Source: Obrimoposthia wandeli | Taxonomy: Eukaryota | Direction of reading: 5' to 3' | NCBI GenBank assembly: GCA_977020255.1 | Contig: CDROCS010000636.1 | Location: forward strand, 1-64,000 | DNA length: 64,000 bases | Translations under genes and position numbers: made by a program | Notes under the pieces: model-generated | What the model saw: the letters and a program-made list of their open reading frames with translations, nothing else | Told to the model about the DNA's origin: nothing | The model's database searches: none | In this document: piece by piece, positions 5,064 through 33,659 of the stretch | Layout of the letters: the number at the start of each line of letters is the position of its first letter | How positions within the stretch are numbered: position 1 is the first letter of the stretch

Positions 5064-7170
5064 TGTTAGATTTAGAAATTGAAATTGATAAAAAATTAAA
5101 TAATTTATACTAAAATAAAATCATGAAAACAAGGTTAATAATATTTAAAATTAAGTTAAAATATTTAGAGGATAAAATCAGGGGTAAATATTAATAGGAC
5201 CACGAGGTGGTAGCAATCACCGTTATATATAAGGTTAAGTTAATTAAGTAAAAGTGCAAAAAAGAAATCAGCAAACAAACTATAGAAAAGGAAAGTCAAA
5301 GATTAATCAAATCAAAAGAAAATCCAGAAAGAAGAAATTATTGTAAGTTGCGATTATTGATTAAAATCCGTTTTACTTTCTTTTTAGCTGTCAATCTTAG
5401 TGACAGGAAACGTCACAACCAAAATTTCAATTTCTATATTTTCAGCTGTCAGGATAGAGTGGCTTTGAGTGACAGGAAACGTCACAGCCAAAATTTCCAA
5501 TTTCTATATTTTCAGCTGTCCAGGATAAGTGGCTACAGCGCTCTAGCCTAAGTGGGTAAAATTACTATAGAACAATTTTCTTTAAGTCAACTAATTTAGA
5601 AAAAAAACAAATTGAAGTCGAATGAAATCGAATATAATTGAAAGGTTGAAACAAATAATTGAAGTCAATATAATTGAAAGGTAGGAAACAAATAATTGAA
5701 ATCAATATAATTGAAAGGTTGAAACAAATAGTGAAGTCGAATATAATTGAATTGGAAAAGACAAATAATTGAATACAAATAATTGAAGAGTCGTTGAATA
5801 CAAATAATTGAAGTCGAATCTAATTGAATAGTTGGAAACAAATAATTGAAGTCAGAATATAAGTCGAAGAAGGTTGGAGACAAGTGAAATCGAATATAAT
5901 TGAAGTAAAATCTGGATTGAATAAAGACAAATTGAAGTCGAGACAAATTGACGGACAGACCAACATATCTCCGACAAATCATTAACCGAGAGTCCAAGCA
6001 GAGCCAACCCTCTGACAGCCCACGGATCCAGATCTCGGGAAAAACTCTAGGATTGGATAGGTAAGACGACTCATATAAATTCATTCATTGTCAGAAGTTG
6101 ACAATTCGATTACTCTCATTCATTGTCCGAAAGTGACAATTCGTTACTCTAATTCATTGTCCAGGTGACAATTCGTTACTCTCATTCATTGTCAGAAGGT
6201 GACAATTCGAAATACTCTCATTCGTTGTCGAAAGGCGTGTTCGTTACTCTCATTCATTGTCAGAAGGTGACAATTCGATCTCATTCATTGTCAAAGGTGA
6301 CAGTCATTCGATCTCAATTTATTGTCAAAGGTGACAATTCAAATTACTCTCATTCAAATTGTCCAGAAGATGACAATTCGATACTCTCATTCATTGTCGA
6401 AGGTGACAATTGATACTCTCATTCATTGTCCGAAGGTGGCAATTCGTTACTCCATACAAATCATTGTCCACAGTTGACAATTCGGCCTCCATACAAATCA
6501 TTGTCCACAGTTGACAATTAGGCTTTTATACGAATCATTGTCCACAGTTGACAATTCTCGTCTGAATTCATAACACTAGAATGAAAGTTACCCAAGTTAA
6601 AAAGCTTTACCCAACACGATCTAAGTTTAAGTTGAAAGAAAGTTTTAAAAGAGTTGTGTTATAAATTAACCAACCTAGAAAGAAGTTTTGCATTCGCACC
6701 TTTATTGTCATAAGAATAAAGGTTTAACCTCAAAGTTCAAGCCGATAGCAAAGTTAAATTGTTGAGAATCTGTAACGTGAGCTTATTCTCGAGTCAGAGG
6801 AATAACTCTAAAATCTCGATCACCCCGAACACGTAAAATCGAGTACGTGGTTCATCCCCACTTGTTGTAGAGACTTACAGAAGTCTTAGGAATTTTACTA
6901 TACTTTTTAGAAAATACGTACATAAACGTATTGTTGTGTTCAGTTTAGTGTGCTACCAATAAACGATTTCCTACATTAGAAAACGCGTTGTTTTTGAACC
7001 TTCAGATTAAAGACGTCAAACCAAACACCTTCAGATAAACAAGAGAGATAGGCAACCATAACACTAAGTAGGCCACGACCAACTTTAAGACCTGCTTCTA
7101 TTCGAACTCACGTTGGGGCCCTCCGCACATAAGAGGATCTGTACAAGTTCATCGTATAGAAACCCCAACA
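5064..7170 (+). repeat. 5' LTR (2107 bp)
   Basis: Starts TGTTAGATTTAG, ends AAACCCCAACA; collinear with 26747-29034; internal tandem arrays at ~5590-5940 and ~6085-6560. Confidence 0.92.
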
Positions 7171-7178
7171 TATTAAAG

Positions 7179-7196
7179 TGGTGCCCCGAGTGAGGA
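7179..7196 (+). promoter_or_regulatory. Primer-binding site, most similar to the complement of the elongator tRNA-Met 3' end
   Basis: TGGTGCCCCGAGTGAGGA, 8 nt after the LTR end. Its reverse complement ...CCTCACTCGGGGCACCA resembles metazoan elongator tRNA-Met 3' ends as I recall them (...CCTCACACGGGGCACCA). Confidence 0.75.
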
Positions 7197-7224: not shown

Positions 7225-8330
7225 GAATAAGTTTCAGATAATTGAGGAATAGAGTTTCAAGGTAAATAGAATAAGTTCAGATATTGAGAATAAGTTTCAG
7301 AGAATAGAGTAAGTTTCAGGTAAAATAGAATAAGTTCAGATATTGAGAATAAGTTTCAGAAAGTAGAATAAGTTTCAGGTAGAGAATAAGTTTCGGAGAT
7401 GTAAAATGAGAATAAGTTCAGATGGCTGAGAATAAGTTTCAGATAATTGAGAATAAGTTTCAGGTAAAATGAACAAGTTCAGATATTGAGAATAATTTCA
7501 GAGAAATAGATAAGTTCAGATATTGAGAATAAGTTTCAGATAATTGGTAAGTTTCAATTAAATAGAATAAGTTCAGATATTAAGAATAAGTTTCAGATAA
7601 ATTGAGAATAAGTTTCAGCAGAAGAAGATATAAGCAAATTTAGATAAGAATTTGATAAGTGTTGAGAAATCAGTAAGATTTGTTCCTCGAAGTTAAGATT
7701 TGATAAGTTTTGAAATCAGTAGATTTGTTCCTCGAAGTTAAGATTTGATAAGTTTTGAGAAATCAGGTGGGTGTTCCTCGAAGTTAAGAAAATTTGATAA
7801 GTTTTGAAATCGAGTAGAATTTGTTCCTCGAAGTTGAGAAATTTGATAAGTTTTGAGAAATCGAGTAGATTTGTTCCTCGAAGTTAAGAATTTGATAAGT
7901 TTTTGAGAAATCGAGTAGATTTGTTCCTCGAAGTTAAGAATTTGATAAGTTTTGAGAAATCGGTAGATTTGTTCCTCGAAGTTAAGAATTTGATAAGTTT
8001 TGAGAATCGAGTAGATTTGTTCCTCGAAGTTAAGAATTTGATAAGTTTTTGAAATCGGGTAGATTTGTTCCTCGAAGTTAGAATTTGATAAGTTTTGAGA
8101 AATCGAGGTAGATTTGTTCCTCGAAGTTAAGAATTTGATAAGTTTTGAAAATCGGGTAGATTTGTTCCTCGAAGTTAAGAGTTTGATAAGTTTTGAGAAA
8201 TCGGGTAGATTTGTTCCTCGAAGTAAGAATTCGATAAGTTTTGAGAAGTCGAGTGGATTTGTTCCTCGAGTCCAGTAAATTTGATAAAGTGAGAATCGAG
8301 TGGATTGATACTCGAGTGTAATTAATTGAA
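7225..8330 (+). repeat. 5'-leader tandem arrays (gagaataagtttcag-type at 7225-7640; ~48-bp unit at 7670-8290)
   Basis: The 48-bp unit gtagatttgTTCCTCGAAgttaagaattTGATAAgttttgagaaatcg; 12 intact TTCCTCGAA copies between 7683 and 8222. Confidence 0.9.
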
Positions 8331-8657: not shown

Positions 8658-10375
8658 TTGACTGAATTATTTGGTGACATAAACCCAGAAGAATTTGAAA
8701 TTGCCAATCCAGTAGTGATTGAAGAAGTTCAAGCATTGAATAATATTGAAGAAATAGTTGAAGATATAGTTGAAAATATGGCTCACCCAGGAGCTCAAGC
8801 AGATATTAATGCAGGAAATAATGTAGGTGACATGAATGCCGAACAGTTGGCACAAGCCTAAATGCGACGTTGAGAACCCAATTTTTCAGGATCATTGCAG
8901 ATTACAAAGTTTAAAGGAGATGAGGAAAGTATTTGTGACTTCCTCGCAGAATATTCGAGTTGTGCAGATGTTCAAGGATGGAACGATAAAGAAAAATGTG
9001 TCCGAGTACAGGCACACTTAACCGGATTAGCACTTGAAGTGTATAAACATTTGACAGAAGCAGAACGTTTAGACTGGCCAACGTTGGAAAATGCTTTTAT
9101 TGGAAAATTGGTATTAGGAGACTTAGCCAAAGTAAATAAGCGACTCATGAGAGAACGGAAACAGAAACATGATGAAGGCGTGAATGAATACGCGTATGTT
9201 TTGAGAACCTTGGCCGCAAGAGCGTACCCAAGAAGAATAATGAGAAATCAGGACGGTAATCCTGTAGCTCAAGAAGCACAAGTAGCGGAAAATGACCGGA
9301 ACCAAAATGAAATGGCAGAGGTTTTGTTAGATATATTTAGAGGAGGATTGAAAAAGGATATTAAAGTGTTATTAGCAGTATCGGATACAAATGATTTTGA
9401 TAACGCCGTGCGAAAGGCGAGAGAGATTGAGAAAAATATAAAAATAACGCAGTATTGGCAATTTACGCAATGACTGCAGGTGACGACGATAAGACAAAGG
9501 TCTTCGTGAATAAAACAGAACTGAGTAATTTTCAGAATCGAAATTATGGACAAAATAAGTTTGAAAAAGTAGATGAATCCAGTAACGGAAATAGAGATAA
9601 TTTCCGAAGTAGGAATCGAGATGATTCCAGAGGTAGAAATAATAGTGAGTCTTGGAACAGGAATCGAGATGATTCAAGAGGTAGAAATGGTAATGATTCG
9701 TGGAATAGAAATAGAGATGATTCCAGGAATAGATTTAATAGAGATAATTCAGGAAATCGCCAACCTTGGAGAGGAGACGATAGGAATTATAACGCAAACA
9801 GAGGAGAGCGAAGTGACTCTCGATTTGGAAATAATACAGGAAGTAGTGACGGAAGATTCAATAATCGAGGAAGCGGTTTTGAATCGAATTTCCGAAGAAA
9901 TGATTTTAGAGGACGATATGATAATAGACAGAATAGTTGTCGAGTACAGTTCGCAGATGAACAAAATAAGATAGATATTCGAGGGAGAATAATGTGTTAC
10001 ACGTGTAAACAAATGGGTCACTATTCGAGAGACTGTACGAGGAGTAAAGAGTTCGGAACTAACAGATTTGGAAATAATAATTTCGGTAATAATAATTTTG
10101 GAAACAATTATAGAGGATATAATTCACCTCCGCCATGGAATAGAGGTGGTGGATATACTCCACAGCCATGGAGACCGAATAATCAGTATACAGATAGACA
10201 ACAGTCACCAGGTAGATACAATAACTATGCAGACAGACAGCAAGGAGCTGAGAGATACAATAATTACGTAGGACAGCAAGGAGCTGAGAGATATAATAAT
10301 TCCGGTAGATATAATAATAATAATGTTGACAAGACAAATAGTCGTGAGTTCGCCGAAACCGAAAGGAAATTTTAG
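8658..10375 (+). CDS. gag: Gag (capsid domain, R/N/G-rich linker, CCHC zinc knuckle), frameshifted
   Basis: FKGDEESICDFLAEYSSCADVQGW..K...HLTGLALEVY retrotransposon capsid pattern; CYTCKQMGHYSRDC (CX2CX4HX4C) at 9994-10036. The true start may lie upstream (~8440). Confidence 0.85.
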
Positions 10376-10907: not shown

Positions 10908-11139
10908 ATGAAAATTTCGCTTCGATTAATTTCCGGACAGATAATACATGAAAAACTTAACGTGTATCAAACAATGAAAACGATTCGGAAAAAAGTTGGC
11001 CGAGAAACTTGAAATTGATGGAATGAATATGTTGTTCCATTATAAAGGGAGATCACTAGATGATGAGGACGTACCAGTCGAGTGTGGATATCCGATAGGA
11101 AATGAATTAGAGGAAAAAATTGATGTCATCACTGTAGGA
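10908..11139 (+). CDS. Ubiquitin-like domain in the polyprotein, split by a +1 frameshift at ~10998
   Basis: Removing one G joins MKISLRLISGQIIHEKLNVYQTMKTIRKKV-AEKLEIDGMNMLFHYKGRSLDD, which aligns without gaps to ubiquitin [52 protein letters not shown]. No C-terminal GG. Confidence 0.7.
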
Positions 11140-11819
11140 CGTCAAGAGTTAGTAGATAATGAAGGATTAACGGAGATATTAAATTCTGCGTTGGAAATGA
11201 TAAAAACGCCTATAGAAATTTTAGACAGTTCAAGCGAAAGCGGAGATAATGATGTAGCTGAAGCTTGGAACAAGACATCCACACCAGAACCACGTAGCTG
11301 AATTACAAGACATGAATTTAGAAAATGAGTTGACAACTCCAGTGGTCGAGGTACCGCCAGAACCAGATATAATTCAAATCAGACAAGATGAAGTCACGGA
11401 TACAGCTAACCAAGTGAGACAAAAACGAAAACCGTAACCCAACTAGTAGGAGAAGACGAAATCTCCGAAATTGTAGATTTAGATTCACCAATTTGGCATG
11501 CTGCATACAAAGATAGACAAGCGGAGCAGATGATGCGACAAAGTGAAGAGATTGGCCATGAAGAAGGACCAAGTCAAGAGATACAGTATAATGGTGAACC
11601 GTATGATCCAGGAGAGAATCAAACTGAGTATCAGTATTTTCGAAGAGGACCTGGAAGACCTAGAAAGGACGGAAGTATATTACGAAATGTTCTAACTGCA
11701 CCACAAACTGATGAAGAGAGACATCTAAGCATTGGACAGTTAGCAGCGTCATTAGAGCAGTATAGTGCAGAGAGGAATGAAGATATCAGAGGTGATATGA
11801 ATTCAGAAGCTCCAAGTAG

Positions 11820-12200
11820 TAAAGATATACTTACGGGAATTCTCAGGCAAGTGAAGCCGAAGTTGTTCAAAATGTACAGAGATGAAACAACCGATATAAC
11901 AGACAATTTGACTAAAGCAGTTAGATCACAGATGTCTGCAGTAAAGAGAATGACCGCGAATCATGTATACCATGCATCGATAGATAGATTTTACGACGGT
12001 GAAGTTTTAGCGAGATTATGTGGAAATCAGACTACAAATAAAAAGTTAATTACAGCAATCACATATCTATGTTTCCAATTGACGGAACGAACGAGCCAAC
12101 CTCACGAAGTCAAACAAGGAATAAATGAAGCGATGTATTTGATCGAGAATGTATTACAGAGACGAATTGACGAAAACGGAGGTTGGGCAAAATTAAGTGA
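11820..12200 (+). CDS. Putative Bcl-2-like domain in the polyprotein
   Basis: YLIENVLQRRIDENGGW resembles BH2 (TYLNDHLEPWIQENGGW in Bcl-xL); KLITAITY sits at BH1-like spacing upstream; the NWGR motif is degenerate; a hydrophobic segment follows. Confidence 0.55.
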
Positions 12201-12312
12201 CTACGCTAAAACCATTGTGGAAATGAACGAAGACGATGACGAACAATGTCATGAGAATCGTCAAAGAGAAAATAAACAATACCGTCCGAAAGAGAGAAAC
12301 AATCAACCAAAT

Positions 12313-14180
12313 ATGTCCACAACAATGATGATGATGTTAGTAATGTTCATGGGAATGCAACAGGAATCAGGACTGATAGCATACGACTGTAGCATACCAA
12401 AGATGGGACAAAAGTATTCACTGCTTGACAGCGAAGACTGTCCAGAATCACAACCGTCAAAATTAGAAGTTAAAGGTGTTGAAAACTACTTTGTGTATCA
12501 GGATGTTGATAAAGTACAAGTAGAAGTGAAAGAATGTTCAATCCATTCAAGTTATCACGAATTCTATTGTGGCCATAGAAGTTTTATGTCGGAAATCACA
12601 CCTACCACACCGTACAAAGCACATAAGGTTTTGCCGAGAGATTGCGAAGACGCATTTCGAACGGGAACAATAGAAGTAGACAAGAATTACAAACCTGATG
12701 TAAAAATTGGAGTAAGACGATACGAAACAGTCACGAGAGTCGGACAACGATGGGCTGATGGATCTTGTGACGGAGGAACAAAAAACGTGCGTGGAACCAA
12801 AGTAACAGAGTTAGTAATGGACGTAACTTACAAAATCGAATTAAAAACATGGACCGCCAATTTTGATAAAAAGACACAACTAATGATGAAGTATCCAGAA
12901 TGTAAAATGACAGATACATCTTGTTTTACAGGCGAATCCACAATTGTGTATCACGTGAATCCGAAACAATGCTCTTTAGTATTTTTGAAAGAGATTAGCT
13001 TTAACAAAATAAAAGGATTCCTGTATAATAAAGATGGAGAAGGATTCCTGTATAATAAAGTTGGAAAAGGATTGCTAAATGAAACAAGACCAATTCCAAT
13101 GACAAAGACACCTACACTGTTAATGGCAACATCAATAGAAGAAGGATTGATATTTATTAAAAAGAGAAACAAAGCGCGATGCGGAATGACTGTTAGTACT
13201 ACAAACTATCCAGCAATAGTTTTGTCCAAAGAAGCAATAGCATTGGCAGAAACCAAGCTAAAACCAAAAAATATGCAGCTACACACGTATTTTAATAATA
13301 AAATTGATTTCTATTATCATAAAGGATTGATGCAAATGGAACAGTTATATCGGATGATGATCGAAAGAGATTGCCAGCTAAACAAAGAGATCGTAAGAAC
13401 AAAGTTAGCATTAGCTATTACGAATCCAGACATGGTAGCACCATTATTACCCTTGGATGAAGGAGTATTTGCTAAAACCATGGGAGAAGTATTGTATACT
13501 TACAAGTGTAATAAAGTAGAGGTACAGTTGAGAAAAACAGATCGATGTACGAGTGAATTGGCAGTAACGTATAATTTAAAAGATCTTTTGTTGAACCAAT
13601 CACGAGAATGATACTTCCAAAAGACACTCCAACTAAAGAAATCAGCTGCTCTAATATAATGGCACCTGAATATCAGATGACGAATGATCTATGGATAACG
13701 TTACCTGATCGAAAGCCAACGCAAAACCCCAGCGATGATAAAAATGACGAATCTTAAAGGTAAAATGAAATTCGAAGCGGTGGAAAATATGGAGAACGCA
13801 GGATTGTACAATGAAAAAGACTTAAAAGCGGCATGGAACGAAATAATGTTTCCAGTAAAAAGAGCCAGAGTACTTACGGAGATGGTACATCGAGCATTAC
13901 CGCCAGGAGCTAGATATGCGAATTTTGATATGTTGTTATCGCCAAGTCATTTCAAGGAAGCAGCACATCAGACACTTAGAAAGTTGTGGGGGAAATTCCT
14001 TGTTTTAGGACAATTATTTTCGGGTATCATAGGTATTTATGTTATAATTAAATTTGTGCAGGTAATTATAGCCCAGGTGTTGTCTACGTATAGTTTATAC
14101 AGGATAACCGGAATCACCTGGCAACTTATAATTGGATGTTTTCCATTTTTAGCAAAATATCTAATGCACCATCATCACGA
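12313..14180 (+). CDS. env: Envelope glycoprotein of chuvirus (Jingchuvirales G)-like type, two frameshifts (~13595, ~13730)
   Basis: Internal signal-like MMMMLVMFMG then LIAYDC; Cys-rich ectodomain (YCG, GSC, CG..TTNYP, LY..MI..DCQL...KLALA..NPD, GEVLY.YKC..VEV..R.T..C..EL.V); C-terminal TM pair FLVLGQLFSGIIGIYVIIK...G.TW..I. Confidence 0.8.
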
Positions 14181-14529
14181 GAACGAGTTGCAAGCCCTCA
14201 AGAAGGAACAACACCAAACGAGAACCATGATGCGAGAACCAAAAAACTATCGAGACGACAACGACGACGATAATGATAGCCCAGGAGTATATGCAAAGAT
14301 ACCAGGAAAACCAAAGATTCCGTTACCAGACAAGGAAGAAGTGGCGTTAAACCTATATCCAATGAAGGAACTAAAGGAAGAGAAGGAAAAGTTCAAGAGA
14401 GGCATCTTAATGATAAGATGGCCTAAAGTGAGCTACAGTGAGATTCCACAAGCAGAGGGAAAAGACAAAAAAGATAATTCCAGAAGAATTCTGAAGTCTA
14501 GGATATCAAATGAGAATCCAAATGCTCCA

Positions 14530-14830
14530 CCCCAAGTAGCAGTAACATTGAACGGAAGAGAATATCTTGCCGAAGTTGATACTGGATCCGCAGTATCAGT
14601 ACTGAGTAAAGAAATCTTGTCATCAAAAGAATTAAGAGAAGTATGTCCTAGAAAATAGACATTTGTTAACGTAAATGGTACAGATGTAGTGTCGGAAGGA
14701 ACACTGAAATGTTCATTGAATATCGATGGAAGAGCATTGCAGTTAAATGCTAGAATATTCACAGATTGCGGTAGTCCAGTCATGATTGGGATGGACGTAA
14801 TAAGAATGTTTGAAGGAATAATTATACTAC
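14530..14830 (+). CDS. Retropepsin-like aspartic protease, copy 1 (in-frame TAG at 14656)
   Basis: LAEVDTGSAVSVL (DTG at 14578), VNG flap-like segment and IGMD; same frame on both sides of the stop. Confidence 0.8.
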
Positions 14831-15059
14831 CAAACAACAAGAGTTATAAGAATGACAGTTCAGTGAGAGAGATAAAAATGTTGAGAGGACCTATAGTCGA
14901 AAAGGAAAAATACACTACGTTCCGTATGGGAAATTTGTACCAAGACAAAAAACAGGAAGCGCTAGTAAAGTCGATACTTCACTACAAAAACGTAAACCTC
15001 GGACCACAAGAGATGACGAGGAGAAAAATAACATATGTGAATCTGTCAGAAAAGGATCC

Positions 15060-16050
15060 CATGAGATTCGAGAAAAAGAGACGAAATATATTAGAACTGT
15101 ACTATTCAAAAGAAATGGCACGTAAAATGGCAAGATCAGGTTTAGAAATGTTAAACGCGACAAGCAGTTATGGTCATGAGATAGTAGTACGATGCGTATG
15201 GTGTAGAGTAAAGTTTAGAGAGTGGGAAAAGAATGAAAACCCAATGAGACGTCATAAAAGAGATGCACCAAATTGTCCATTTCTTTTGAAACTGAAAACG
15301 TCAAACGTACCAGAAATCCAAAAGGGAAAAGCACCCGATTTCGATTACAGCGACGAGATTCCAAAAGGAAAATCAGCTCTAATAACAGGTAGAGTAATAA
15401 CGAATAGTCGAATTGAAGACATATTCGAAGTTATGCGAGAAGTGAACGAATGTGACGAACAGTATCGAGAAATAACTTTCGAAGATCCAAGACTTAAAAA
15501 ATTGGCAAAAAGGGACTTTTGCTATAAAAAAGGATGGTAAAGACGTAATTAAATGCCACAAGTGTAAAAAAGAACGAATTATCGACAGATATACTCTTGA
15601 GCTACCTAAGAAAATTTTACATCATGAATTTTGCGAATTTTGTACTTTTAAAAACAAAATAAAGCAAAAAGAACAGAAAACCGAATGTATAATCGAATAC
15701 CAAATCACACGGAAAGAGATTTTGGCTCAACAAGACACACCGGTAGTGTCATTCGTGAGAAGGTTATATCCAAAAGAAGCAGAAAGAATCAGAGATTTGG
15801 TAGAATTAAAAATAAAAACTACGCGAAATGGATACGGGACAATTTTTGAATTACTAAAAGATAAAGATGACAGTACAATTGAAACAAAAGAGAAAGAGTA
15901 CATAAATGAACTAGAATACGTACTAGAAGATCCGGAATGCGCAGTTTGCATGGTCAACAAAATAGAAGTTGCCTTTCTACCATGCGGACATGTAAGAACA
16001 TGTCGGAGATGTGCGAATGAAATGGTATCATGTCCGATTTGTCGAAGAAT
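15060..16050 (+). CDS. IAP-like module: BIR1, diverged BIR2 and C3HC4 RING
   Basis: BIR1 CVWC-X16-H-X6-C (15193-15276). BIR2 LAKRDFCY..KDVIKCHKC-X18-H-X6-C (15502-15643), split by a frameshift in an A-run at ~15530 and then in frame with pol. RING CAVC...FLPCGH..TC..CA....CPICR (15938-16042). Confidence 0.85.
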
Positions 16051-16159
16051 AATAGATCGACAAGTGAGAAACATTAGATTTCACTATCCAAACAAAGGAA
16101 GTGGACCGACAGAGTGTAATAATTCGATAAATACAATATACCATATGGGAAATATAAAT

Positions 16160-19100
16160 GGAGCACAGCGACCAGCAGCTATCATTAGAGTAAATAATTT
16201 AAGAGTAAAAGCCTTAATTGATACAGGTGCTGTAGCTTCGATAGTAAGTGAAGACTGTTTGACAGAGGAACAGAAACGAACAATGGCAGAACCAGATGAA
16301 TTCTTGGTATCGGTCAATGGAGACCCTGTAAAAGTGACGGGAATATTACCATGTACATTTATAATTGGACGTAATACGATCACTATACCAGTTAGAATCA
16401 TGAAAGAATGTCCTGAACCTACAATTTTAGGAATGGATGTACTATCACAACTTAAAGGGATAAGTATTGATTTACAAGATCCAAGATTGAAGGATAGCAC
16501 ATCAAACAGACAAATAAACCAAATTGATGTAATTATAGAGAATCCTATAAAAATCGGTAAAAGATCACAATTTCTCATTCAAGGTCACACATTATCGGAA
16601 GATAAAGGACCAGTTGTGTTCGAACCATCACGAGATTTCATAGAGAAATACGAATTACCAGTTGTGAGTACAGTATGCCTGATCGAAAACCACAAAATAC
16701 CAGTTAGACTGATGAATACAACCAACAATGACATTCTATTATACAGAGGAATGAGGTTGGGAAAGATAGCACAAATGGAGAATCCCACCGTGTGTGCTAT
16801 GAAACTCGATAAAGATACGAATGATTACGAAGAGATAGTAATCCAATCAGAAAGACTGACAACTAGAGAAAAGAAACAATTACTTGATCTAATACATAAA
16901 TTTCCGAAAGTAATTGCAAAAAATCCATATGACATAGGAGAAACACCTGTCATAAAACATACAATACCACTGACAGAAGATAAAGTAGTCAGAAGAAGAC
17001 CATATCGAGTACCATTACAGTTACAAGATGAAGTAAAAAGTCAGATCGAAGATATGTCTAAAACAGGAGTAATTAGACCGAGTTTTTCGCCATTCTCAGC
17101 ACCTGTGGTGTTGGTAAAAAAGAAGGATGGGAAAATGAGATTCTGTATAGATTTCAGAGAACTGAACAAGATCACAAGAAAAGATGTGTATCCATTACCT
17201 AGAATCGAAGAGATGCTCGATAAATTGGGTAATTCAGATTATTTTACAACATTAGATTTGCAAAGTGGATACTGGCAAATCGAGATAGAGGAAGAGGATA
17301 AACACAAAACAGCCTTTTCCTGCGGAGATGGATTATACGAATGCGAAAAGATGCCATTCGGACTGACAGGAGCTCCAGCAACATTTCAGCGTTGCATGAA
17401 TTTTGTACTCGCATCGTGTGCAAACACGATGGTTTATATCGATGACATAATAATATTTTCGAAAACGTTCGAAGAACATTTAAAAAATCTTGAAGTTGTA
17501 TTTAAAAGACTGGAAAACGCTAAATTAAAAGTTAAACCTACAAAATGCGAATGGGCTAAAGAGCGAGTAACATTTTTAGGACATATAGTATCGAAAGAAG
17601 GCATTCGACCTGATCCGGCAAAGATCGAGAAAGTAAAAGCGCATTTAGCGCCAAAGACTGTTAAGGAGATACAGAGTTTTTTAGGTCTTGCGAATTATTA
17701 TAGACGATTTGTTGAACATTTTTCAGATATAGCAACACCATTGAGAAAGTTGACGAGAAAAGATGAGAAGTTCATATGGGGAGAAGAAGCACAACAAGCG
17801 TTCGAACATTTAAAAGAAAGACTGATAAAAGCACCAATATTAGCGTTTCTAGATATAAACCGACAATTCATACTCATGACAGATGCAAGTAACTATGCTG
17901 TAGGAGCAGTATTGGGACAAGAGGATGACGAAGGAAGAGAACACGTCATCGCGTATGCGAGTAGAGGATTAAACAGAGCTGAAAGAGGATACTCTGTTAT
18001 CGAAAAGGAATGTCTAGCCATAGTGTATTCATGTAGACAGTACAGACACTATTTGCTAGGACAAAAAGTATTCCTGTATACAGATCACAAACCACTACAG
18101 TTCTTATATAAACATAGAGATGAGATGAGTAGATTAAACAGATGGTTTCTAAAATTGGCCGAATTCGATCTAGAAATCCGTTATAGAACCGGAAAGTCGA
18201 ACGGCGGCGCAGATTGTTTGTCGAGATTGACAAATGTAGACGAGAAAGGAAACATAATTCCAGAAGAAGATGAAACCAATGACCAAAAAGGAGAAGCAAA
18301 TCTACTGACGATTTTGCTAAAGACGGGTAAAATAGACAAAGAGATCATCAAAGAACAGAAAGAAGATGAAGAACTGAGTCTAATCAAAGAATTGTTGGTG
18401 AAAGGAGACCTAAACGATGAAATGACGAAGAAATACTCGATAAAAGAAGGAATCTTGTATATTGTCAATAATGTCGGAAAGATAGTAGTAGTAATTCCGA
18501 AGTCATTGAAAACAGCAGTGATGATCCAGTATCACGATGGAACACTAGGAGGACATCTGTCAGGGCGAAAGACAATAGCCAGAATCAAAGAGAAGTACCA
18601 TTGGGATGGTATGGAAGACGACATAAAACAATGGTGTAAACAATGTAAAGTATGTTTAACCAGAAAAGACACCGGAACTCGTACTAAAGTTCCACTGAAA
18701 CCAATGCCAGTTCCTTTGGCACCAATGGAATTCACAGCGATGGATATATTGGGACCATTGAGAGAATCAAGTAAAGGAAACAAGTACGTCATAGTATTTA
18801 CGGACTTACATGACGAGATGGGTAGAAGCATATCCCATGCAGAACCAGAAAGCTGAAACAATAGCGCAGATCTTAGTGGAAGAGATAATATTTCGATACG
18901 GAGTGCCTAGAAAGTTGTTAACGGATCAAGGTAAGAACTTCACTGGAGAAGTAATAAAAGCAGTATCGAAGATATTCGGAATCATGAAGTTACAAACTTC
19001 ACCATATCACCCACAAACAGATGGTCTAGTAGAAAGGTTTAATAAAACTTTATGTATGATGGTACAATCCTATTGCTCAGACAAGCAAGAGGATTGGGAT

Positions 19101-20912: not shown

Positions 20913-21659
20913 ATGGAGGTTGAATTCGCTAAAGAGAACAGAAAAAGACAAAACATAGAATTCGTGAAACAGAATATACAAGAAAGACGAATTAAATCTG
21001 CAGAAGAAACCGAGTCGGAAGAAGACTCAACAAAGGAACAGACATCAGAGACAAAGATGAATATCTCTCCAGCAATACGAATGCTGAGAGGAAAGAAACT
21101 GGCGAAACTATCCAACATCGACGAACAGATAGAGAAGAGATTAGAAAGACTAAAACTCGAAGAGTCAGAATTATTGCCACCAATGAGCGAGATCATTCCA
21201 GATAAGTTATACCTCGGAAATGTGGAAGATGCAACAGATGAAAAGAAACTGTTGGAACAAGGGATAACATACGTGATCAACGTTACAATGAATCACAAAT
21301 CACAATATCAGACAATCAGAGCTATGACATTAAGAGTAAAAGACTCAATGGACGCTAATCTTCTCGAATGGTTCGTAGAAACAAACGAAATACTTCACAG
21401 AGAACTCCGAAACCAAGGAAAAGTGTTGGTACATTGTCAGAAAGGAATTTCTCGATCAGCAACTCTAGTATTAGCATATCTAATAAAGACTAGACGAATG
21501 CAGGTACTAGAAGCGCTGAAATACCTACAGGAGAGAAGAAGTATTGCAAACCCAAATCTTAATTTTTTGGGACAGTTGGCAAATTACCAACTTCTGTTGC
21601 AAGAACAAAGACGGATAGACGACATTCCTGAGGATCCAAAGGAAAAGAATTTCCTCTAA
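20913..21659 (+). CDS. Dual-specificity protein phosphatase, catalytic motif intact
   Basis: MSEIIPDKLYLG, GITYVINVT, V.D, VLVHCQKGISRSATLVLAYL (HC at 21432), NPNLNFLGQL. Confidence 0.92.
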   Translation: MEVEFAKENRKRQNIEFVKQNIQERRIKSAEETESEEDSTKEQTSETKMNISPAIRMLRGKKLAKLSNIDEQIEKRLERLKLEESELLPPMSEIIPDKLYLGNVEDATDEKKLLEQGITYVINVTMNHKSQYQTIRAMTLRVKDSMDANLLEWFVETNEILHRELRNQGKVLVHCQKGISRSATLVLAYLIKTRRMQVLEALKYLQERRSIANPNLNFLGQLANYQLLLQEQRRIDDIPEDPKEKNFL

Positions 21660-21668
21660 GCATTATCG

Positions 21669-22931
21669 TTGACCGGGTTATTCTTAGCCGGAGTCGACAA
21701 AATTACACAGATAATGCCAAAAGTATTTTTATGTCATCCAGGAGATATAGATACTGCTGGATTAAAGTTCCACAGTATCAACCGAGTAATCAACATTGTT
21801 GAAGTCGGAAACGAAATAATCAGTCTGTGTCAAAATACTGAAGATGACACCACTCGATACATACATGCTTCCAATCGAGAGATAAACGATGCACAACAAC
21901 ATCTGACGAAATTGACTCAAACCATCCAAGCCGAAGTCACAGAAGGAAACGGCGTTCTGATATATCAGAAAAAAGGTACAATGTTAGCGCCTACCATAGG
22001 TGTATCCTTGTTGGTAGAGTACCATGGTCACACGCCAGAAGAAGCGATGGTCTACATCAAACAGAATAGACCAGATACGGAATTCAAACCGTTACTCGTT
22101 CGAGAAATAGAGAAGTACGCCGAAAAGAGGAAGCAACAACGAGAAACAAATGAAGCTACAACAACAGTGCCCAGCTTTCAATACCAAAGATTGCTAGCGA
22201 TAGGCTTGTTAAGTTGTCTAATGCCGATAACGGGAGCACAAGAGATAGGCTCCAACCACGGAAATAGTTCCTGGTTCAACGAAATCCACAACTACACCAT
22301 ACAGTACCATACGCCGGCACTGATGATGCTATTAGTGTTGTTAGGATTAATTGATGTGTGGATCATCCGAAAATGTCTCCGATCTATGAGAACCGACAGT
22401 AAAAGATTTCAGTTTGTAAAGATGAAAAGACCAAATGGACCGACGAACAAAGTGCTTGTGTATCTAGACGAAAGGATCGAGGATAACATAGTAAATGAAG
22501 CGATATTTTATCCACAAAACAGAATACTGAATCAATTCCGAATAGATTACGAAGCTGACCGACAGCGCACACTTGACCGAATATCAACAACATTCGCCGG
22601 ATGCAAGCGAAGAAAACGAATTGTAAAGGAAATAAAAAAAGATGCTGATACAAAAGGACCGACGTATATATTCGACGGCGATGTCATCAAAACACGTGAG
22701 TATGGAAGTAAGAGAGTGATAATTGAAACGATGGAAGGACATAAAACATGCTTGTCCGCTAAAAATGGATTCGGAAAGTTGATGATACAAGGTAAACAGG
22801 TACAGTTGATTATCGGGAAAAATGGAATCGAGGAGATGTCAAAACAACGACAGACAACAAAACGATCCAATCAGAAACAGATATCTCTCAAACGAATGAT
22901 AATTAAAACCCTTTGCAAAAGGTCAGTCTAG
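21669..22931 (+). CDS. ORF with a catalytically dead DSP-like domain, a small signal+TM segment and an unknown basic domain
   Basis: ITQIMPKVFL..INRVINIV..GVLIYQKKGTMLAPTI..L..Y.G.T.EEAM.YIKQNRP parallels the upstream DSP but lacks the HCxxGxxR Cys and Arg. Hydrophobic stretches LLAIGLLSCLMPITGA and LMMLLVLLGLIDVWII follow. Confidence 0.6.
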   Translation: MTGLFLAGVDKITQIMPKVFLCHPGDIDTAGLKFHSINRVINIVEVGNEIISLCQNTEDDTTRYIHASNREINDAQQHLTKLTQTIQAEVTEGNGVLIYQKKGTMLAPTIGVSLLVEYHGHTPEEAMVYIKQNRPDTEFKPLLVREIEKYAEKRKQQRETNEATTTVPSFQYQRLLAIGLLSCLMPITGAQEIGSNHGNSSWFNEIHNYTIQYHTPALMMLLVLLGLIDVWIIRKCLRSMRTDSKRFQFVKMKRPNGPTNKVLVYLDERIEDNIVNEAIFYPQNRILNQFRIDYEADRQRTLDRISTTFAGCKRRKRIVKEIKKDADTKGPTYIFDGDVIKTREYGSKRVIIETMEGHKTCLSAKNGFGKLMIQGKQVQLIIGKNGIEEMSKQRQTTKRSNQKQISLKRMIIKTLCKRSV

Positions 22932-22955
22932 GCCCTGTGCACCGTTGCACAAGGA

Positions 22956-23621
22956 TTGATCTACGGAGTAGTAATTGGATTAGTACTACAAGCCATGCCA
23001 ACCAGTAAAGCTGAAATGATGACATTATACGAGTATAATCTACATTTGAGAAATCTAGACAACACCCTCGAAATAATCAAGACGTCCCACAGTAAAGCCG
23101 TAAGGATCATGTGTGTAAAAGGATGTCCAGGACGAATGTGTATAGTTCCAGCGACCGAAATGAAAACACTTAATGGACATTATGGAGTTAGTATTGTCAC
23201 ATGTGAAGACTACACATTTGGACAAACTAAAATAGTACTTCTCAGTGACATGTCCAACCAAAGTGCACACAAATTTAAAATATTAACCATCAAGAGTAAA
23301 TGAATACCAGCAGTACGTTATGGTATTCTAGAATTGGTTAATCCAATACTCGCACTGATCATTGGATTCATAATATTAATATTACTCATCTTGTTTTGTT
23401 GTACAAAGATAGAGTTGAGATCAAAAAAGAAACGTCATGATCTTGCAAGACGAACAGGTCAAATGAATTTACAAAAATTCAACACAAGTATACCAAGACC
23501 ACCATTCCTAGATGAACCAGCACCGGAGTACCAGCCAACGATATATGAACATATCGAGGAAAGACCGTACTATATGAGTAATTTGAGTTGTTTCATTGAA
23601 ATTCCTGAGTTTAGGAATTGA
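22956..23621 (+). CDS. Putative type-I membrane protein (signal, Cys-containing ectodomain, TM, Tyr-motif tail); in-frame TGA at 23301
   Basis: LIYGVVIGLVLQAMPTSKA signal-like; ILALIIGFIILILLILFCC TM followed by RSKKKR; tail contains TIYEHI. Confidence 0.5.
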
Positions 23622-23636
23622 ACGATCATAGGAATC

Positions 23637-24854
23637 ATGCTGATCATACAAATTACCACTACCAAGGCTAGTTATGAGATCATGATCAGTAAATGGAGAC
23701 AAGATGTAATACGGGCATTATACATAGAAATCCCTCTATTAAAAACAAATCACGTAGTAGACATTCATCTACAGACGTCAGCAACCGACAATATCGATCA
23801 GAAATTGTATGTCATCCGACAGGTCAGAATAAAGATCGACCAAAGTACACCTTACTACAAACTGATATTATTCAATCACGAAAGAGTGTTATACCTACGG
23901 ATAACGATATCAAAAAGGAAGCGGATTATCCAAAGTATCCGCACAAAGTCATTAATATTGCCTAGAGATGAGCGCATCTGGAAAATTGTCGACAGGATTA
24001 TGATCACAGGTAGACGACGTAAAGCCGTATGGAATTCCGTTAGAATATTTTTCAGATTACTAGAAACTGACAAAGTAACAGTATCGTGTCCCAATCCAGA
24101 TGGCGGAATCAGATTCGAAATCCAAAACCAAATGTTAGTACCACATTTTGATACAGAATGTCTGTGTAATCGAATTCCCAGTAACACTACAGAGACCTCG
24201 ACCATAATCATGGTAATAACAGGTGAAATATTCTACATAACTCTAAGATACCAGAACCGTCGATTTCGTAGGTCCGGTATAAGTATCAAACCCAGGAAAA
24301 TCATTCCCAAAAAACCAATCCTAGTCAAAAAGAAGGCAAAGGTAAACGAAAGTAAACACCATTCCAAAAAGCCGAAAGTGATCAGAACAAAGACAGAAGC
24401 GAAAGAAAAAGAGCTAAAATCCAGAAACCAAAGTACAGTTATTAAGAGGACAAGAGTGAGGGGAACGATCCCACTAGATCCCAAAAATTATTTCCAATCC
24501 AAAATAATAATACCTGTTCTACCAGAAACAAAACACCCAAATCCACGAATTTTTAGAAAATCGGACATAATACATGGAAACCGATCAAAACCCATGGAAA
24601 TGTCATTCGAACCGACAAACAACAAAATGAAGTATGAGTATCAATCATCAGATAGCAGAGTAACAGCGGTCAATGCTCTAATTGGAATGGCCGTAGTGTC
24701 AACAGCAGTGGTTCTATTGACAGTCGTGTGCGTGAAAGGCAGTCAAGTATGCCCAAGAATACGGCGAAAATGCGAAGGATTGCGATGCTGTGACATACCC
24801 ACCATGGAGGAAGTGGAATTGCGACCCTTACCTCCGCCTCCCATCAAGATATGA
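23637..24854 (+). CDS. Putative type-I membrane protein, unknown function
   Basis: 405-aa ORF with an N-terminal hydrophobic segment, Lys-rich region, TM ALIGMAVVSTAVVLLTVVCV and a Cys/polyproline tail. Confidence 0.55.
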   Translation: MLIIQITTTKASYEIMISKWRQDVIRALYIEIPLLKTNHVVDIHLQTSATDNIDQKLYVIRQVRIKIDQSTPYYKLILFNHERVLYLRITISKRKRIIQSIRTKSLILPRDERIWKIVDRIMITGRRRKAVWNSVRIFFRLLETDKVTVSCPNPDGGIRFEIQNQMLVPHFDTECLCNRIPSNTTETSTIIMVITGEIFYITLRYQNRRFRRSGISIKPRKIIPKKPILVKKKAKVNESKHHSKKPKVIRTKTEAKEKELKSRNQSTVIKRTRVRGTIPLDPKNYFQSKIIIPVLPETKHPNPRIFRKSDIIHGNRSKPMEMSFEPTNNKMKYEYQSSDSRVTAVNALIGMAVVSTAVVLLTVVCVKGSQVCPRIRRKCEGLRCCDIPTMEEVELRPLPPPPIKI

Positions 24855-24977
24855 TAAGTCAGAGGAGGTTGTAGATAAATTAGTGTGTGAAATATGTAGA
24901 AATATCTAGAAGCGATTGTACAAATAGTAGAAATATATAAAACTCATGTAGAAATTAATCATCATCATGTATTTAGA

Positions 24978-25277
24978 ATGTCCGAAGAATGCCCAATATG
25001 TTTGGAAGATCTCACCGAACGAAGAACAAGACCCGAAACCTGCAACCATTTACACCACGAGGAATGTTTATCAACATGGATCAGAACTTATGGACAGTTC
25101 GGACATCCAACATACCCTTGTTGCCCTGTATGCAGAAGACAATTCGCAAGATTCATCATGTTAGAACCCAACCAAGAGGATGTATATGTACAGGTGGTAT
25201 TCTGTTGGAAGAATTTCGGAGAGTGTTGGTGTTACTACTGTTTGTCAGAACGACAAAATCCGACCACTTTTGTGTAA
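24978..25277 (+). CDS. RING-H2 zinc-finger protein 1
   Basis: CPIC...CNHLHHEEC..W...CPVCR plus a C-terminal CWK....CWCYYC cluster. Confidence 0.85.
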   Translation: MSEECPICLEDLTERRTRPETCNHLHHEECLSTWIRTYGQFGHPTYPCCPVCRRQFARFIMLEPNQEDVYVQVVFCWKNFGECWCYYCLSERQNPTTFV

Positions 25278-25337
25278 ACATCACACAATCACCAGTCCTC
25301 AATCGAGCCCAAATTCAACATCAACCCTCTCACAGTA

Positions 25338-25643
25338 ATGTCTGGAGAATGTTCCATCTGCTACGAGAGCATCGTGGACCTCTACACCAAGCCCAACAAC
25401 TGCGACCACCTTTTCCACATCGAATGCCTCGAGACGTGGATTCCCATCGCCAACAGCAACAATCCCCTCGACTTCCCAACCTGCCCGATGTGCAGAGCGA
25501 CCTTCTCAGTGCACTACGTGTACAACCAGGACAGCCTCCAAGCAGTGGTACCCATAGTACACTGCTGGAAAACTATCTGCGATTGCTGGTGCTCGTTCTG
25601 CGTGGAGGAGCGACGCACAGGCCAGCCCAACTCCCAGCAATAA
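25338..25643 (+). CDS. RING-H2 zinc-finger protein 2 (paralog of 1)
   Basis: CSIC...CDHLFHIEC..W...CPMCR plus the same CWK....CWCSFC cluster. Confidence 0.87.
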   Translation: MSGECSICYESIVDLYTKPNNCDHLFHIECLETWIPIANSNNPLDFPTCPMCRATFSVHYVYNQDSLQAVVPIVHCWKTICDCWCSFCVEERRTGQPNSQQ

Positions 25644-25984
25644 TCGAAGGTAACTTTCTGACTTGAACGTGACATCATGAACTACCCTGTGTATCGCATA
25701 CCGCGATAAATTAGCTACCATAATTGTAATCATAATTGTATAATCTTGTGAAACTGTAAAATGACCATTACCATTTTTATGTATGTTGTTTAACTGAAAT
25801 TGTAATTATTATACTGAAATTCTAAAAGACAATTTTTTATGCCTAGTGTGAATGTGTAAACATGCCTAAAATCGGAACAAAACTCGGTAGGATTAAAAAA
25901 CTAAGGGTTCGTTTTGAAACTAGAATTTTAAACTTTATAAATTAACGACGAAAACAGTCGAAAAGGAATCATTATTTTGTGCAG

Positions 25985-26482
25985 ATGAAGTGTTCAGTCT
26001 GCCTGGAGAAAATTTGGACGGCATCGGCATCCCCTGTCGGCTGCCGTCACAAATTCCACGAGTCGTGCCTCTATACTTGGGCCCGACTTCGACCCGAAGG
26101 CCACGTCACATGTCCGTTGTGCCGTGCTCCCTTCGCGGAGTGGACACTACAATGTCGCGGACGCCACAAGGGCACTCATTCGCTCACCAGCTGTATTGGT
26201 GGCGAACATTACCAATGCCCCAACTGCATCGCGCGCCGTCGCGACGCGAAACTCGCCCTCCGCGAAAAATGGCGATCAACCCGTGACTGCCGCTCATGGC
26301 AACGTGGTCGCCAAATATGGATCCAGAACCGCGGGGTCCACGGGCGGTACACGACCCTCTTCCACCCCAATCAGCACCTCAGCATGCCCCAGCAGATGGC
26401 CCTGTTCGAAGGCAGGACTCCATCATATCCAGACCTACCACTGGAGCAGGTCTTGCTGTTCTTAAAAGACAGAAACAATTGA
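25985..26482 (+). CDS. RING-H2 zinc-finger protein 3
   Basis: CSVC...CRHKFHESC..W...CPLCR plus downstream C....H.QCPNC; ATG at 25985. Confidence 0.85.
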   Translation: MKCSVCLEKIWTASASPVGCRHKFHESCLYTWARLRPEGHVTCPLCRAPFAEWTLQCRGRHKGTHSLTSCIGGEHYQCPNCIARRRDAKLALREKWRSTRDCRSWQRGRQIWIQNRGVHGRYTTLFHPNQHLSMPQQMALFEGRTPSYPDLPLEQVLLFLKDRNN

Positions 26483-26746: not shown

Positions 26747-29034
26747 TGTTAGATTTAGGAATTGAGAAATTATTAAAAAATTAAATAATTTATACTAAAA
26801 TAAAATCCTTGAAAGCAAGGTTGAAAATTAAATATTTAAAATTAAGTTAAAATATTAGAGAATAAAATCAGGGGTAAATATTAATAGGACCACGAAGGTC
26901 GTGTGTAATGCGTTATATATAAGGTTAAGTTAATTAAGTAAAAGTGCAAAAAAGAAATCAGCAAACAAACTAAGAAAAAGGAAAGTCAAAAAATTAATCA
27001 AATCAAAAAGAAATCCAGGAAAAGAAGAAATTATTGTAAGTTGCGATTATTGATTAAATCGTTTACTTTCTTTTTTCAGCTGCCAATATTGAGTGACAGG
27101 AAACGTCACAGCCAAAATTTCAATTTCTATATTTTCAGCTGTCTAGGATAAGTGGCTTTGAGTGACAGGAAACGTCACAGCCAAAATTTCAATTTCTATA
27201 TTTTCAGCTGTCCAGGATAAGTGGCTACAGCGCTCTAGCCTAAGTGGGTAAGAAATTACTATAAGAACAATTTTCTTTAATCAAATAATTGCAGAAAAAC
27301 AAATAATTGAAGTCGAATATAATTGAAAGGTTGGAAACAAATAATTGAAGTCGAATATAATTGAAAGGTTGGAAACAAATAATTGAAGTCGAATATAATT
27401 GAAAGGTTGGAAACAAATAATTGAAGTCGAATATAATTGAAAGGTTGGAAACAAATAATTGAAGTCGAATATAATTGAAAGGTTGGAAACAAATAATTGA
27501 AGTCGAATATAATTGAAAGGTTGGAAACAAATAATTGAAGTCGAATATAATTGAAAGGTTGGAAACAAATAATTGAAGTCGAATATAATTGAAAGGTTGG
27601 AGACAAATTGAAGTCGAGACAAATTGACAGACAGACCAACATATCTCCGACCAAATCATTAACCGAGAGTCCAAACAGAGCCAACCCTCTGACAGCCCAC
27701 GGATCCAGATCTCGGGAAAAAACTCTAGGATTGGATAGGTGAGACGACTCATATAAACACAAATCATTGTCCGCAGTTGACAATTAGGTTTTATACAAAT
27801 CATTGTCCGCAGTTGACAATTAGGTTTCACGCAAATCATTGTCCACAGTTGACAATTAGGTTTCACGCAAATCATTGTCCACAGTTGACAATTAGGTTTC
27901 ACGCAAATCATTGTCCGCAGTTGACAATTAGGTTTCCATATAAATTTTCATACAAATCATTGTCCGCAGTTGACAATTAGGTTTCACGCAAATCATTGTC
28001 CACAGTTGACAATTAGGTTTCCATATAAATTTTCATACAAATCATTGTCCGCAGTTGACAATTAGGTTTCACGCAAATCATTGTCCGCAGTTGACAATTA
28101 GGTTTCCATATAAATTTTCATACAAATCATTGTCCGCAGTTGACAATTAGGTTTCACGCAAATCATTGTCCGCAGTTGACAATTAGGTTTCACGCAAATC
28201 ATTGTCCACAGTTGACAATTAGGTTTCCATATAAATTTTCATACAAATCATTGTCCGCAGTTGACAATTAGGTTTCCCACAAATCATTGTCCACAGTTGA
28301 CAATTAGGTTCCATATAAATTTTCATACAAATCATTGTCCACAGTTGACAATTAGGTTCCATACAAATCATTGTCCACAGTTGACAATTAGGCTTTTATA
28401 CGAATCATTGTCCACAGTTGACAATTCTCGTCTGAATTCATAACAATAGAAAGTTACTCAAATTAAAGAAAGCTTTACCCAACACGATCTAAGTTTAAGT
28501 TGAAAGAAAGTTTTAAGAGAGTTGTGTTATAAATTAACCAACCTAGAAAGAAGATTTGCATTCGCACCTTTATTGTCATAAGAATAAAGGTTTAACCTCA
28601 AAAGTTCAAGCCGATAGCAAAGTTAAATTGTTGAGAAATCTGTAACGCGAGCTTATTCTCGAGTCAGAAGAATAACTCTAAAATCTCGATCACCCCGAAC
28701 GTAAAATCGATACGTGGTTCATCCCCACTTGTTGTAGAGACTTACAGAAGTCTTAGGAATTTTTACTATACTTTTTAGAAAATACGTACATAAACGTATT
28801 GTTGTGTTCAGTTTAGTGTGCTACCAATAAACGATTTCCTACATTAGAAAACGTTGTTTTAAACCTTCAGACCAACAGACGTCTAACCAAACACCTTCAG
28901 ATAAGAAATAGAGATAGGCAACCATAACACTAAGTAGGCCACGACCAACTTTAAGACCTGCTTCTATTCGAACTCACGTTGGGGCCCTCCGCACACAAGA
29001 GGATCTATACAAGTCTCGTATAGAAACCCCAACA
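26747..29034 (+). repeat. 3' LTR (2288 bp)
   Basis: TGTTAGATTTAG...AAACCCCAACA; holds 8 near-identical 38-bp units (27301-27604) and ~17 units of a 36/48-bp array (27760-28430). Confidence 0.93.
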
Positions 29035-29223
29035 AACGTATTGTTCTGGTCGTGTTCGAAATTTTAATTTGGATACATCATCTAAGCAAATTCCTTTATA
29101 ATTAATATTTGTTAACATTGTAAGTAAAATAATTAAATTATTGTATTTATATATATATTTTTTTTTATTCAGTATACAAATCAACCAATATCTCAAGTCC
29201 AATCAAATCAAACATATCATCAG

Positions 29224-32200: not shown

Positions 32201-32862
32201 GAACAATTGAAATTCATGATAATTTAATAGCTGTTTTATTAAGAAAAGACTTTATTTGTCTCGATCGACCAAATTATATAGGTCAAGCTGTACTAGACCT
32301 TAGCAAATTACGAATGTATACTCTTCAGTATCATGATTTGCAAATATATCGTAATTTGTTCAATTGTTCAATTAATATAGTTGCCGGTGATACCGACTCA
32401 TTCTTTTTGGAATGTAAAAACGTTAATTTAAGAAAACAGTTGTTACCAAAAATGATTGCAGATGGATTATTAGATACGTCAAATTATAATGTGAATGATC
32501 CATTATATTCTAATAAATTTAATAGTAAAATAGGTTTATTTAAAGATGAATCGGAAGGACGAATGTATAAAGAATGGATTTTCTTACTTTGTAAATGTTA
32601 TTCACTTAAGTTTGAAGATGACTTTGAAAATAATAAAGCAAAAGGAGTAAATCTTAAGGGTTCAACGGTTGTACATCAAACATATTTAGACGTGTATGAA
32701 AACGGTATTGCATATACTATACCTCAAAAGAAGTTTGGAACAATAAATCATCAACTATACACGATCATAATACAAAAGACTGCTCTCAGCTCATCAGATG
32801 ACAAACGCTATTGGATCGAGAAAAATAGAAGCCGCGCTTATGGACATTATGAAATTACATAA
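29224..32862 (+). CDS. polB: Protein-primed family-B DNA polymerase (Polinton/Maverick/adintovirus type) with EndoVII-like insertion; two frameshifts (~31430, ~31885)
   Basis: Exo motifs YADFES, FHNLRGYD, YLKTD; IDS and KGIFPY; GIRGG; polymerase motifs YIDVNNLYG, KL.NVSLYGK, GDTDS, GLFKDE, KAKGV, DDKR; CYLC...DHDHFTGKYLGPACNECN at 30823-30915. Confidence 0.9.
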
Positions 32863-33139: not shown

Positions 33140-33505
33140 AGATCACAAAAAAGAAGGGTGGAGACTAAGCCACTTGACCCTTTGAATTAATGGTTAGCCA
33201 AAAAGAAGGGTGGAGACTAGATCACAAAAAGAAGGGTGGAGACTAGACCACAAAAAGAAGGGTGGAGACTAGATCACAAAAAGAAGGGTGGAGACTAAGC
33301 CACTTGACCCTTTCATAGTGATATATCACAAAAAGAAGGGTGGAGACTAGACCACAAAAAGAAGGGTGGAGACTAAGCCACTTGACCCTTTCATAGTGAT
33401 ATATCACAAAAAGAAGGGTGGAGACTAAGCCACTTGACCCTTTGAATTATGGACGACCATAGTAGTTAGCCAAAAGAAGGGTGGAGACTAGATCACTTGA
33501 CCCCC
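33140..33505 (+). repeat. Iteron-like array: 9 copies of GAAGGGTGGAGACTA mostly spaced 26 or 52 bp apart
   Basis: Copies start at 33153, 33205, 33231, 33257, 33283, 33335, 33361, 33413 and 33476. Confidence 0.9.
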
Positions 33506-33526
33506 TCACCCTCTCCCCTCCCTCCT

Positions 33527-33659
33527 CCCCCTAAAGGGTGTCACACCATAAGGATGTCTTGCCACACCATAAGGGTATATGTTGCCTCACTAGAGGTGAG
33601 GCAACATATGCCCTTATGGTGTGGCAAGACATCCTTATGGTGTGACACCCTTTAGGGGG
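33527..33659. other. Near-perfect hairpin/palindrome (64-bp arms, 5-nt loop TAGAG, one G:T mismatch)
   Basis: 33527-33590 pairs with 33596-33659; the inverted symmetry continues to ~33686 against 33476-33505. Confidence 0.95.

Follow-up and report, generated by a model that had tools for sequence, protein, structure and literature searches.

Giant Ty3/gypsy elements of planarians have been described under the names Burro and GYPSM1 (Jurka 2007 and Grohme et al. 2018, as cited in PMC6431247). According to this source, the planarian elements contain one ORF of about 4,900-5,100 aa, which comprises Gag, a ubiquitin/SUMO-like motif 5' of BCL-2, and BIR. The BCL2-like motif was noted by Grohme et al. 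2018, an in-frame Env matching mononegavirus fusion glycoproteins is located from BCL2 to the protease, and the cargo varies among the elements described. Meddling of Burro with apoptosis is suggested there as a possibility that needs experimental confirmation (PMC6431247). BURRO1 has been reported to be expressed upon PIWI loss (PMC8532177). Errantiviruses with GAG-ENV-POL order and an HSV/gB-type Env are known from Platyhelminthes, Nematoda and Bryozoa (PMC13524379); the main text of that paper leaves cargo domains aside and contains none of the terms "Bcl", "BIR", "Burro" and "apoptosis". The viral Bcl-2 proteins reviewed in PMC11209288 originate from dsDNA viruses.

To this background we compare a locus in the window, i.e. 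the whole stretch of 64,000 nucleotides that was analyzed. It harbors an LTR element of 23,971 bp (5064-29034) with the ends TG...CA, as determined by blastn of the element ends and from the end sequences. The features are:

5064-7170, + strand: 5' LTR, TG...CA, with internal tandem arrays (blastn of element ends, end sequences)
8874-10375, + strand: Gag, comprising Retrotrans_gag (Pfam PF03732, E 0.003) and one CCHC knuckle (PF00098, E 2.7e-6), in two frames in this copy
10908-11100, + strand: ubiquitin-like domain 5' of the Bcl-2 domain, a weak match, broken in this copy, bounds approximate
11641-11667, + strand: basic GRPRK motif (sequence; P0003, P0004, P0005, P0006)
11812-12231, + strand: predicted Bcl-2-fold domain of ~140 aa (AF2, Foldseek, VIA-align, profile matches to Bcl-xL)
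12025-12081, + strand: central helix at the BH1 position (alignment A2 and profile alignment to Bcl-xL, read by eye)
12154-12186, + strand: BH2 motif LQRRIDENGGW (sequence, alignment)
12232-12312, + strand: charged linker from the domain to the signal (BH2 to h-region 27-58 aa in nine homologues)
12313-12372, + strand: predicted internal Env signal peptide, cut site immediately 5' of LIAYDC
12373-14256, + strand: Env, a mononegavirus/chuvirus-like (HSV gB-type) fusion glycoprotein (PF24664, E 1e-52 and 6e-28)
14536-16459, + strand: block of protease-like 1, BIR, RING and protease 2 (Pfam)
15109-15285, + strand: BIR (Pfam E 4e-10)
15929-16060, + strand: RING (Pfam E 1e-11)
16166-16459, + strand: protease 2 (Pfam E 1e-7)
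17114-19013, + strand: reverse transcriptase, RNase H and integrase in Ty3/gypsy order (Pfam)
21207-22109, + strand: two dual-specificity phosphatase (DSP) domains 3' of integrase (PF00782, E 1.6e-34 and 8e-6)
26747-29034, + strand: 3' LTR (blastn of element ends, end sequences)

The Pfam matches and the LTR ends identify a Ty3/gypsy LTR element with PR-RT-RH-IN order, the full order being Gag, CCHC, Env (PF24664), protease-like, BIR, RING, protease, RT, RNase H, integrase, two DSP and a last RING. Outside the tandem arrays the two LTRs differ by ~3% substitutions. No target-site duplication was seen at the element ends (5064 and 29034), and this copy may thus have arisen by recombination or be a mosaic of the assembly. 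Tandem units of 36-49 nt occur in both LTRs (5400-6560 and 27090-28450) in differing numbers, and the 5' leader contains further arrays (7260-8300). A primer-binding-site-like sequence starting with TGG (7179-7196) lies 8 nt past the 5' LTR. Two aspartic-protease-like domains, the first with a Pfam E value of 0.018, bracket BIR and RING (14536-16459); two to three proteases downstream of Env were also found in the homologous polyproteins P0004, P0005, P0006 and P0069. In the DSP pair, the catalytic motif is intact in the first domain and degenerate in the second. The interval from the polyprotein to the 3' LTR (22932-26482) contains unannotated frames, one of them Cys-rich-looking, and a RING ORF (25946-26482). 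Directly 3' of the 3' LTR, a Polinton/adintovirus-type protein-primed DNA polymerase B and an endonuclease VII-like domain are encoded in three frames (29137-32862, + strand; Pfam E 9e-8 and 2.5e-6). Positions 33148-33659 contain tandem repeats of 26 nt and, after them, an inverted repeat of 64 bp (98%, 5-nt loop).

The window copy of the element is split into many frames, and its Env frame is broken near 13611. One ORF (11410-13611) holds all features named in an earlier note on this DNA, namely LQRRIDENGGW, a BH1-spaced helix without NWGR, a hydrophobic stretch and LIAYDC, so that these observations stood. Among four 10-kb copies that had been chosen for long frames, in three a single open frame runs from Gag through RT, and residues 1017-1156 form the domain; in the fourth, the frame is open from the knuckle region onward. 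All 150 scored genomic matches, out of 10,994 first-look candidates, are identical over the 140-aa domain. The element family is young and present in high copy number. As to the host, a multi-copy COX1 in the assembly reads AAA as Asn, ATA as Ile and TGA as Trp, a pattern that fits flatworms or echinoderms. The assembly is mixed and also contains a COX1 of bacterial origin and another one of animal type; one contig carries both the multi-copy COX1 and the element. Fifteen Bcl-2-family matches were found in the assembly (L031-L045), most with a recognisable BH1 and none inside this element.

In common with Burro, the element has a huge ORF, Gag, ubiquitin/SUMO-like and BCL2-like domains, an in-frame Env and PR-RT-RH-IN, furthermore BIR and RING cargo, a polyprotein of ~5,000 aa and a very high copy number (PMC6431247). 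As in Burro, the mononegavirus-like Env is situated in frame between Gag and protease (Pfam, genomic copies). The BCL2-like domain lies directly 5' of Env and is preceded by the ubiquitin-like domain, a weak match below the Pfam cut-off (E 0.019, in an unbroken genomic copy mapped onto the window); BIR cargo is present as well. The mitochondrial code of the presumed host is of the flatworm/echinoderm type, which would fit a flatworm, as the planarian hosts of Burro are, but also an echinoderm. On the other hand, this element is 24 kb long with LTRs of ~2.1-2.3 kb while Burro exceeds 30 kb, one CCHC knuckle was found instead of two or three, and the two DSP domains are absent from the list given in the Burro review (PMC6431247). 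The stretches of the element that were scanned gave no Pfam match to MATH or ankyrin, the cargo that together with a length of more than 30 kb marks Burro. Because length and cargo differ, the element is classed as Burro-type rather than Burro proper, a likeness of architecture as described and not of named sequences. The statement of the earlier note that no retrotransposon-borne Bcl-2 was known is superseded by published Burro elements that combine an in-frame Env with BIR and a BCL2-like motif (PMC6431247).

The AF2 model of the domain (pLDDT 88.1, pTM 0.85) was matched to Bcl-2 structures by Foldseek and VIA-align. The prediction is a bundle of helices surrounding a hydrophobic central one, and it can be superposed on Bcl-2/Bcl-xL, the outcome on which the earlier note had staked its proposal of a Bcl-2-like domain. 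The bounds given there had to be corrected to about 11812-12231. Profile searches matched the domain to Bcl-xL. Used alone, the window sequence remained under the cut-off of the Pfam Bcl-2 family (E 0.085 and 0.041), and none of six matches at E<=10 in a PDB sequence search was a Bcl-2 protein. For PF00452, whose curated cut-off is 31.4 bits, the window scored 14.9 bits and the best member reached E 2.5e-5; none of ten sequences attained the cut-off. Profiles and model raise the Bcl-2 assignment well above chance, and judging from the model, the domain almost certainly has a Bcl-2 fold. Its identity to cellular Bcl-2/Bcl-xL and to viral KsBcl-2, BHRF1, A179L and GIV66 is just 7-17%. Unlike these cellular and viral proteins, it lacks NWGR and is embedded in a polyprotein, and any C-terminal anchor would be the Env signal instead of a tail anchor belonging to the domain.

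The BH1 region is remodelled. In all nine sequences the Trp and the Gly of NWGR are lost, the Gly position being occupied by larger polar residues, and a basic residue is kept at the Arg position. Mutation of the BH1 Gly in Bcl-2/Bcl-xL abolishes Bax binding. BH2 is better conserved: regarding the canonical W..GGW pattern, Gly was found in ten of ten sequences and the final Trp in nine of ten. The first BH2 Trp, kept by eight of nine homologues, is Arg in this element family. The C-terminal end of the motif is GGW in six homologues, QGW in two and GGL in one, and the conservation of GGW that the earlier note had made a test was hence borne out. Purifying selection on the domain was computed, yet pN/pS of the linker (7:1) is as low as that of the Bcl-2 domain and the constraint is therefore not domain-specific. 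No tail anchor of its own was detected near BH2; the hydrophobic stretch 27-58 aa past BH2 is the Env signal.

This stretch is Met-rich (12313-12357) and followed by LIAYDC (12373-12390). Within the h-region, a run of Met codons (12319-12336) varies in length, in frame, among copies. The stretch as a whole had been called the single hydrophobic one, which is correct in so far as it is the top 13-mer of the ORF by Kyte-Doolittle (1.72); the central helix buried in the domain comes near (1.58), and with a value of just 1.16 over 19 residues the stretch would make a weak transmembrane anchor. Sixteen of 18 hand-picked homologues satisfy the signal-peptidase (-3,-1) rule if the cut is placed five residues ahead of the first cysteine of Env, compared to 0-5 of 18 at 11 other registers. 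The rule held in all 59 genomic copies, with the window copy off at one position. Between BH2 and the stretch, three of nine domain-bearing homologues have no Met, so in these the stretch must serve as an internal signal. It is thus very probable from sequence that the stretch acts as Env signal peptide. A C-terminal membrane segment of Env is indicated by hydropathy near 14000-14080. Errantiviruses likewise have Env between gag and pol, its ectodomain lying between either a signal peptide or a first membrane segment on one side and a C-terminal membrane segment on the other (PMC13524379). In NCBI, P0010, the polyprotein of an animal retroelement of Gag-Env-Pol type, carries the label of a Flavobacteriaceae MAG protein and is probably a binning contaminant.

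In nine homologues without the Bcl-2 domain, the corresponding position holds a stretch of equal hydrophobicity, and in three close relatives (P0004-P0006) the basic motif is followed by the signal with no domain between. The GRPRK motif is presumably AT-hook-like; relatives with the domain and relatives without it have similar motifs ahead of the Env signal. Since relatives lacking the domain keep the stretch, the latter is part of Env, with the Bcl-2 domain as an optional cassette in front; as the domain is present in just nine of the 76 homologues of Env, it is also dispensable. Consequently, the idea that a Bcl-2 tail anchor was recruited as the signal had to be abandoned, while the behavior as an Env signal, the other half of the claim that the anchor doubles as signal, was retained. 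The literature search found no proposal of a dual role of anchor and signal; the dual-use anchor is a reasonable, modest and apparently unpublished hypothesis.

Taken together, we favor, with a probability of roughly 0.55, a captured, highly divergent Bcl-2-fold domain within the single polyprotein of a Burro-type element whose order is Gag-Env-Pol. Fold, in-frame position, purifying selection and conserved cut site are computed; topology and function are what we infer. Gag-Ubl-Bcl2 would be made in the cytosol, the stretch would enter the ER as an internal signal with Env passing to the lumen, and the Env membrane segment would bring PR-BIR-RING-Pol back to the cytosol. Lumenal-side cleavage in a polyprotein leaves the upstream chain anchored in the ER, and the flavivirus capsid anchor and the hepacivirus core signal are cut on this side by signal peptidase. 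By analogy with the flavivirus capsid anchor, signal peptidase might leave Gag-Ubl-Bcl2 held on the ER by the signal. The flavivirus and hepacivirus segments are short, too, and join a cytosolic protein to a glycoprotein in a polyprotein (bioRxiv 10.1101/2020.11.13.381988, PMC7601889); the analogy to the flavivirus anchor is one of topology only, not of homology. On or near the ER membrane, the domain could damp the death of host cells at a step before the caspases, the target that the IAP-like BIR-RING would block, and expressing cells might survive while particles form. That the domain remains tethered for its functional period is slightly less than an even bet. Whether there is a putative pro-survival activity via the BH3 groove is evenly balanced; the loss of BH1 Trp and Gly in all nine sequences and of the first BH2 Trp in this family speaks against it.

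With the same fold and signal, the domain may instead be freed, either by signal-peptide peptidase or by a cut of the element protease behind helix 8, and act as a factor that is soluble or seeks mitochondria; the stretch would then be a signal peptide only. We regard this as a tentative but serious alternative. It would match the flavivirus anchor, which is later cut off the capsid. With ~13 residues, a 19-residue Kyte-Doolittle value of 1.16 and a position far from BH2, the short h-region is a poor lasting anchor, and the long, charged linker differs among homologues in both length and sequence. A candidate element-protease motif, [IV]xxM, is found right past helix 8 (12214-12225), in 57 of 59 copies; further occurrences lie close to the borders presumed, as judged by eye, for capsid/nucleocapsid, protease-2 and RT. 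However, this motif is present 19 times in 3,332 aa, often within domains, the chance of one occurrence in 45 aa is 0.16, and only one of nine homologues has it in the linker. Soluble viral Bcl-2 folds do exist, N1L having no TM (PMC11209288).

It is conceivable, though unlikely, that the fold was kept with the BH3 groove unused and acts on innate-immune, autophagy or ER-calcium partners in the manner of poxvirus A52/B14/N1-type folds. The loss of BH1 Trp and Gly in all members would fit this, as would the other signalling cargo (DSP, RING, ubiquitin-like) and the NF-kappaB inhibition reported as the main role of N1L (PMC11209288). Quite doubtful is a far-reaching extension of the favored reading. 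Here the Env signal would have become a true tail anchor and the fusion site would have been selected for its free membrane address, yielding an ER- or virion-membrane Bcl-2 with a remodelled groove (Lys/Arg kept, Trp-Gly lost). Such a protein, maybe particle-borne into new cells, would pair with the IAP module in a two-level death block of a reverse-transcribing virus, possibly in a marine host lineage outside freshwater planarians. A purely structural role, in which the membrane-tethered domain is a matrix-like spacer coupling Gag to Env at the budding membrane without affecting cell death, is improbable. The domain does lie in one chain between Gag and the Env signal, and the proposed topology would tie Gag to the membrane via this signal, but the Env relatives P0004-P0006 (35% identity) pass from basic motif to signal without the domain, and BIR-RING in the same element suggests cell-death control. 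A helical spacer resembling Bcl-2 by chance is extremely improbable and already largely refuted, since profile, reciprocal host-gene and structure searches alike returned Bcl-2, even though the single sequence was not significant in Pfam or PDB and ESM Atlas gave DUF6532, with a low recognition value, instead.

That a retrotransposon can contain Bcl-2 has already been published for planarian Burro (PMC6431247) and will not surprise the specialist. What is added here for the captured domain is structure-level support, from a predicted model, for a motif previously only listed, a family alignment revealing the remodelled BH1, the adjoining hydrophobic stretch as an internal Env signal at which the domain is an optional cassette, and a testable topology. 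Being a domain of 140 aa that is predicted to be well folded, it makes the question of apoptosis easy to test. To our knowledge, no functional Bcl-2 mimic from a reverse-transcribing element has been known so far; if both tethering and BH3 binding proved true, this domain would be the first.
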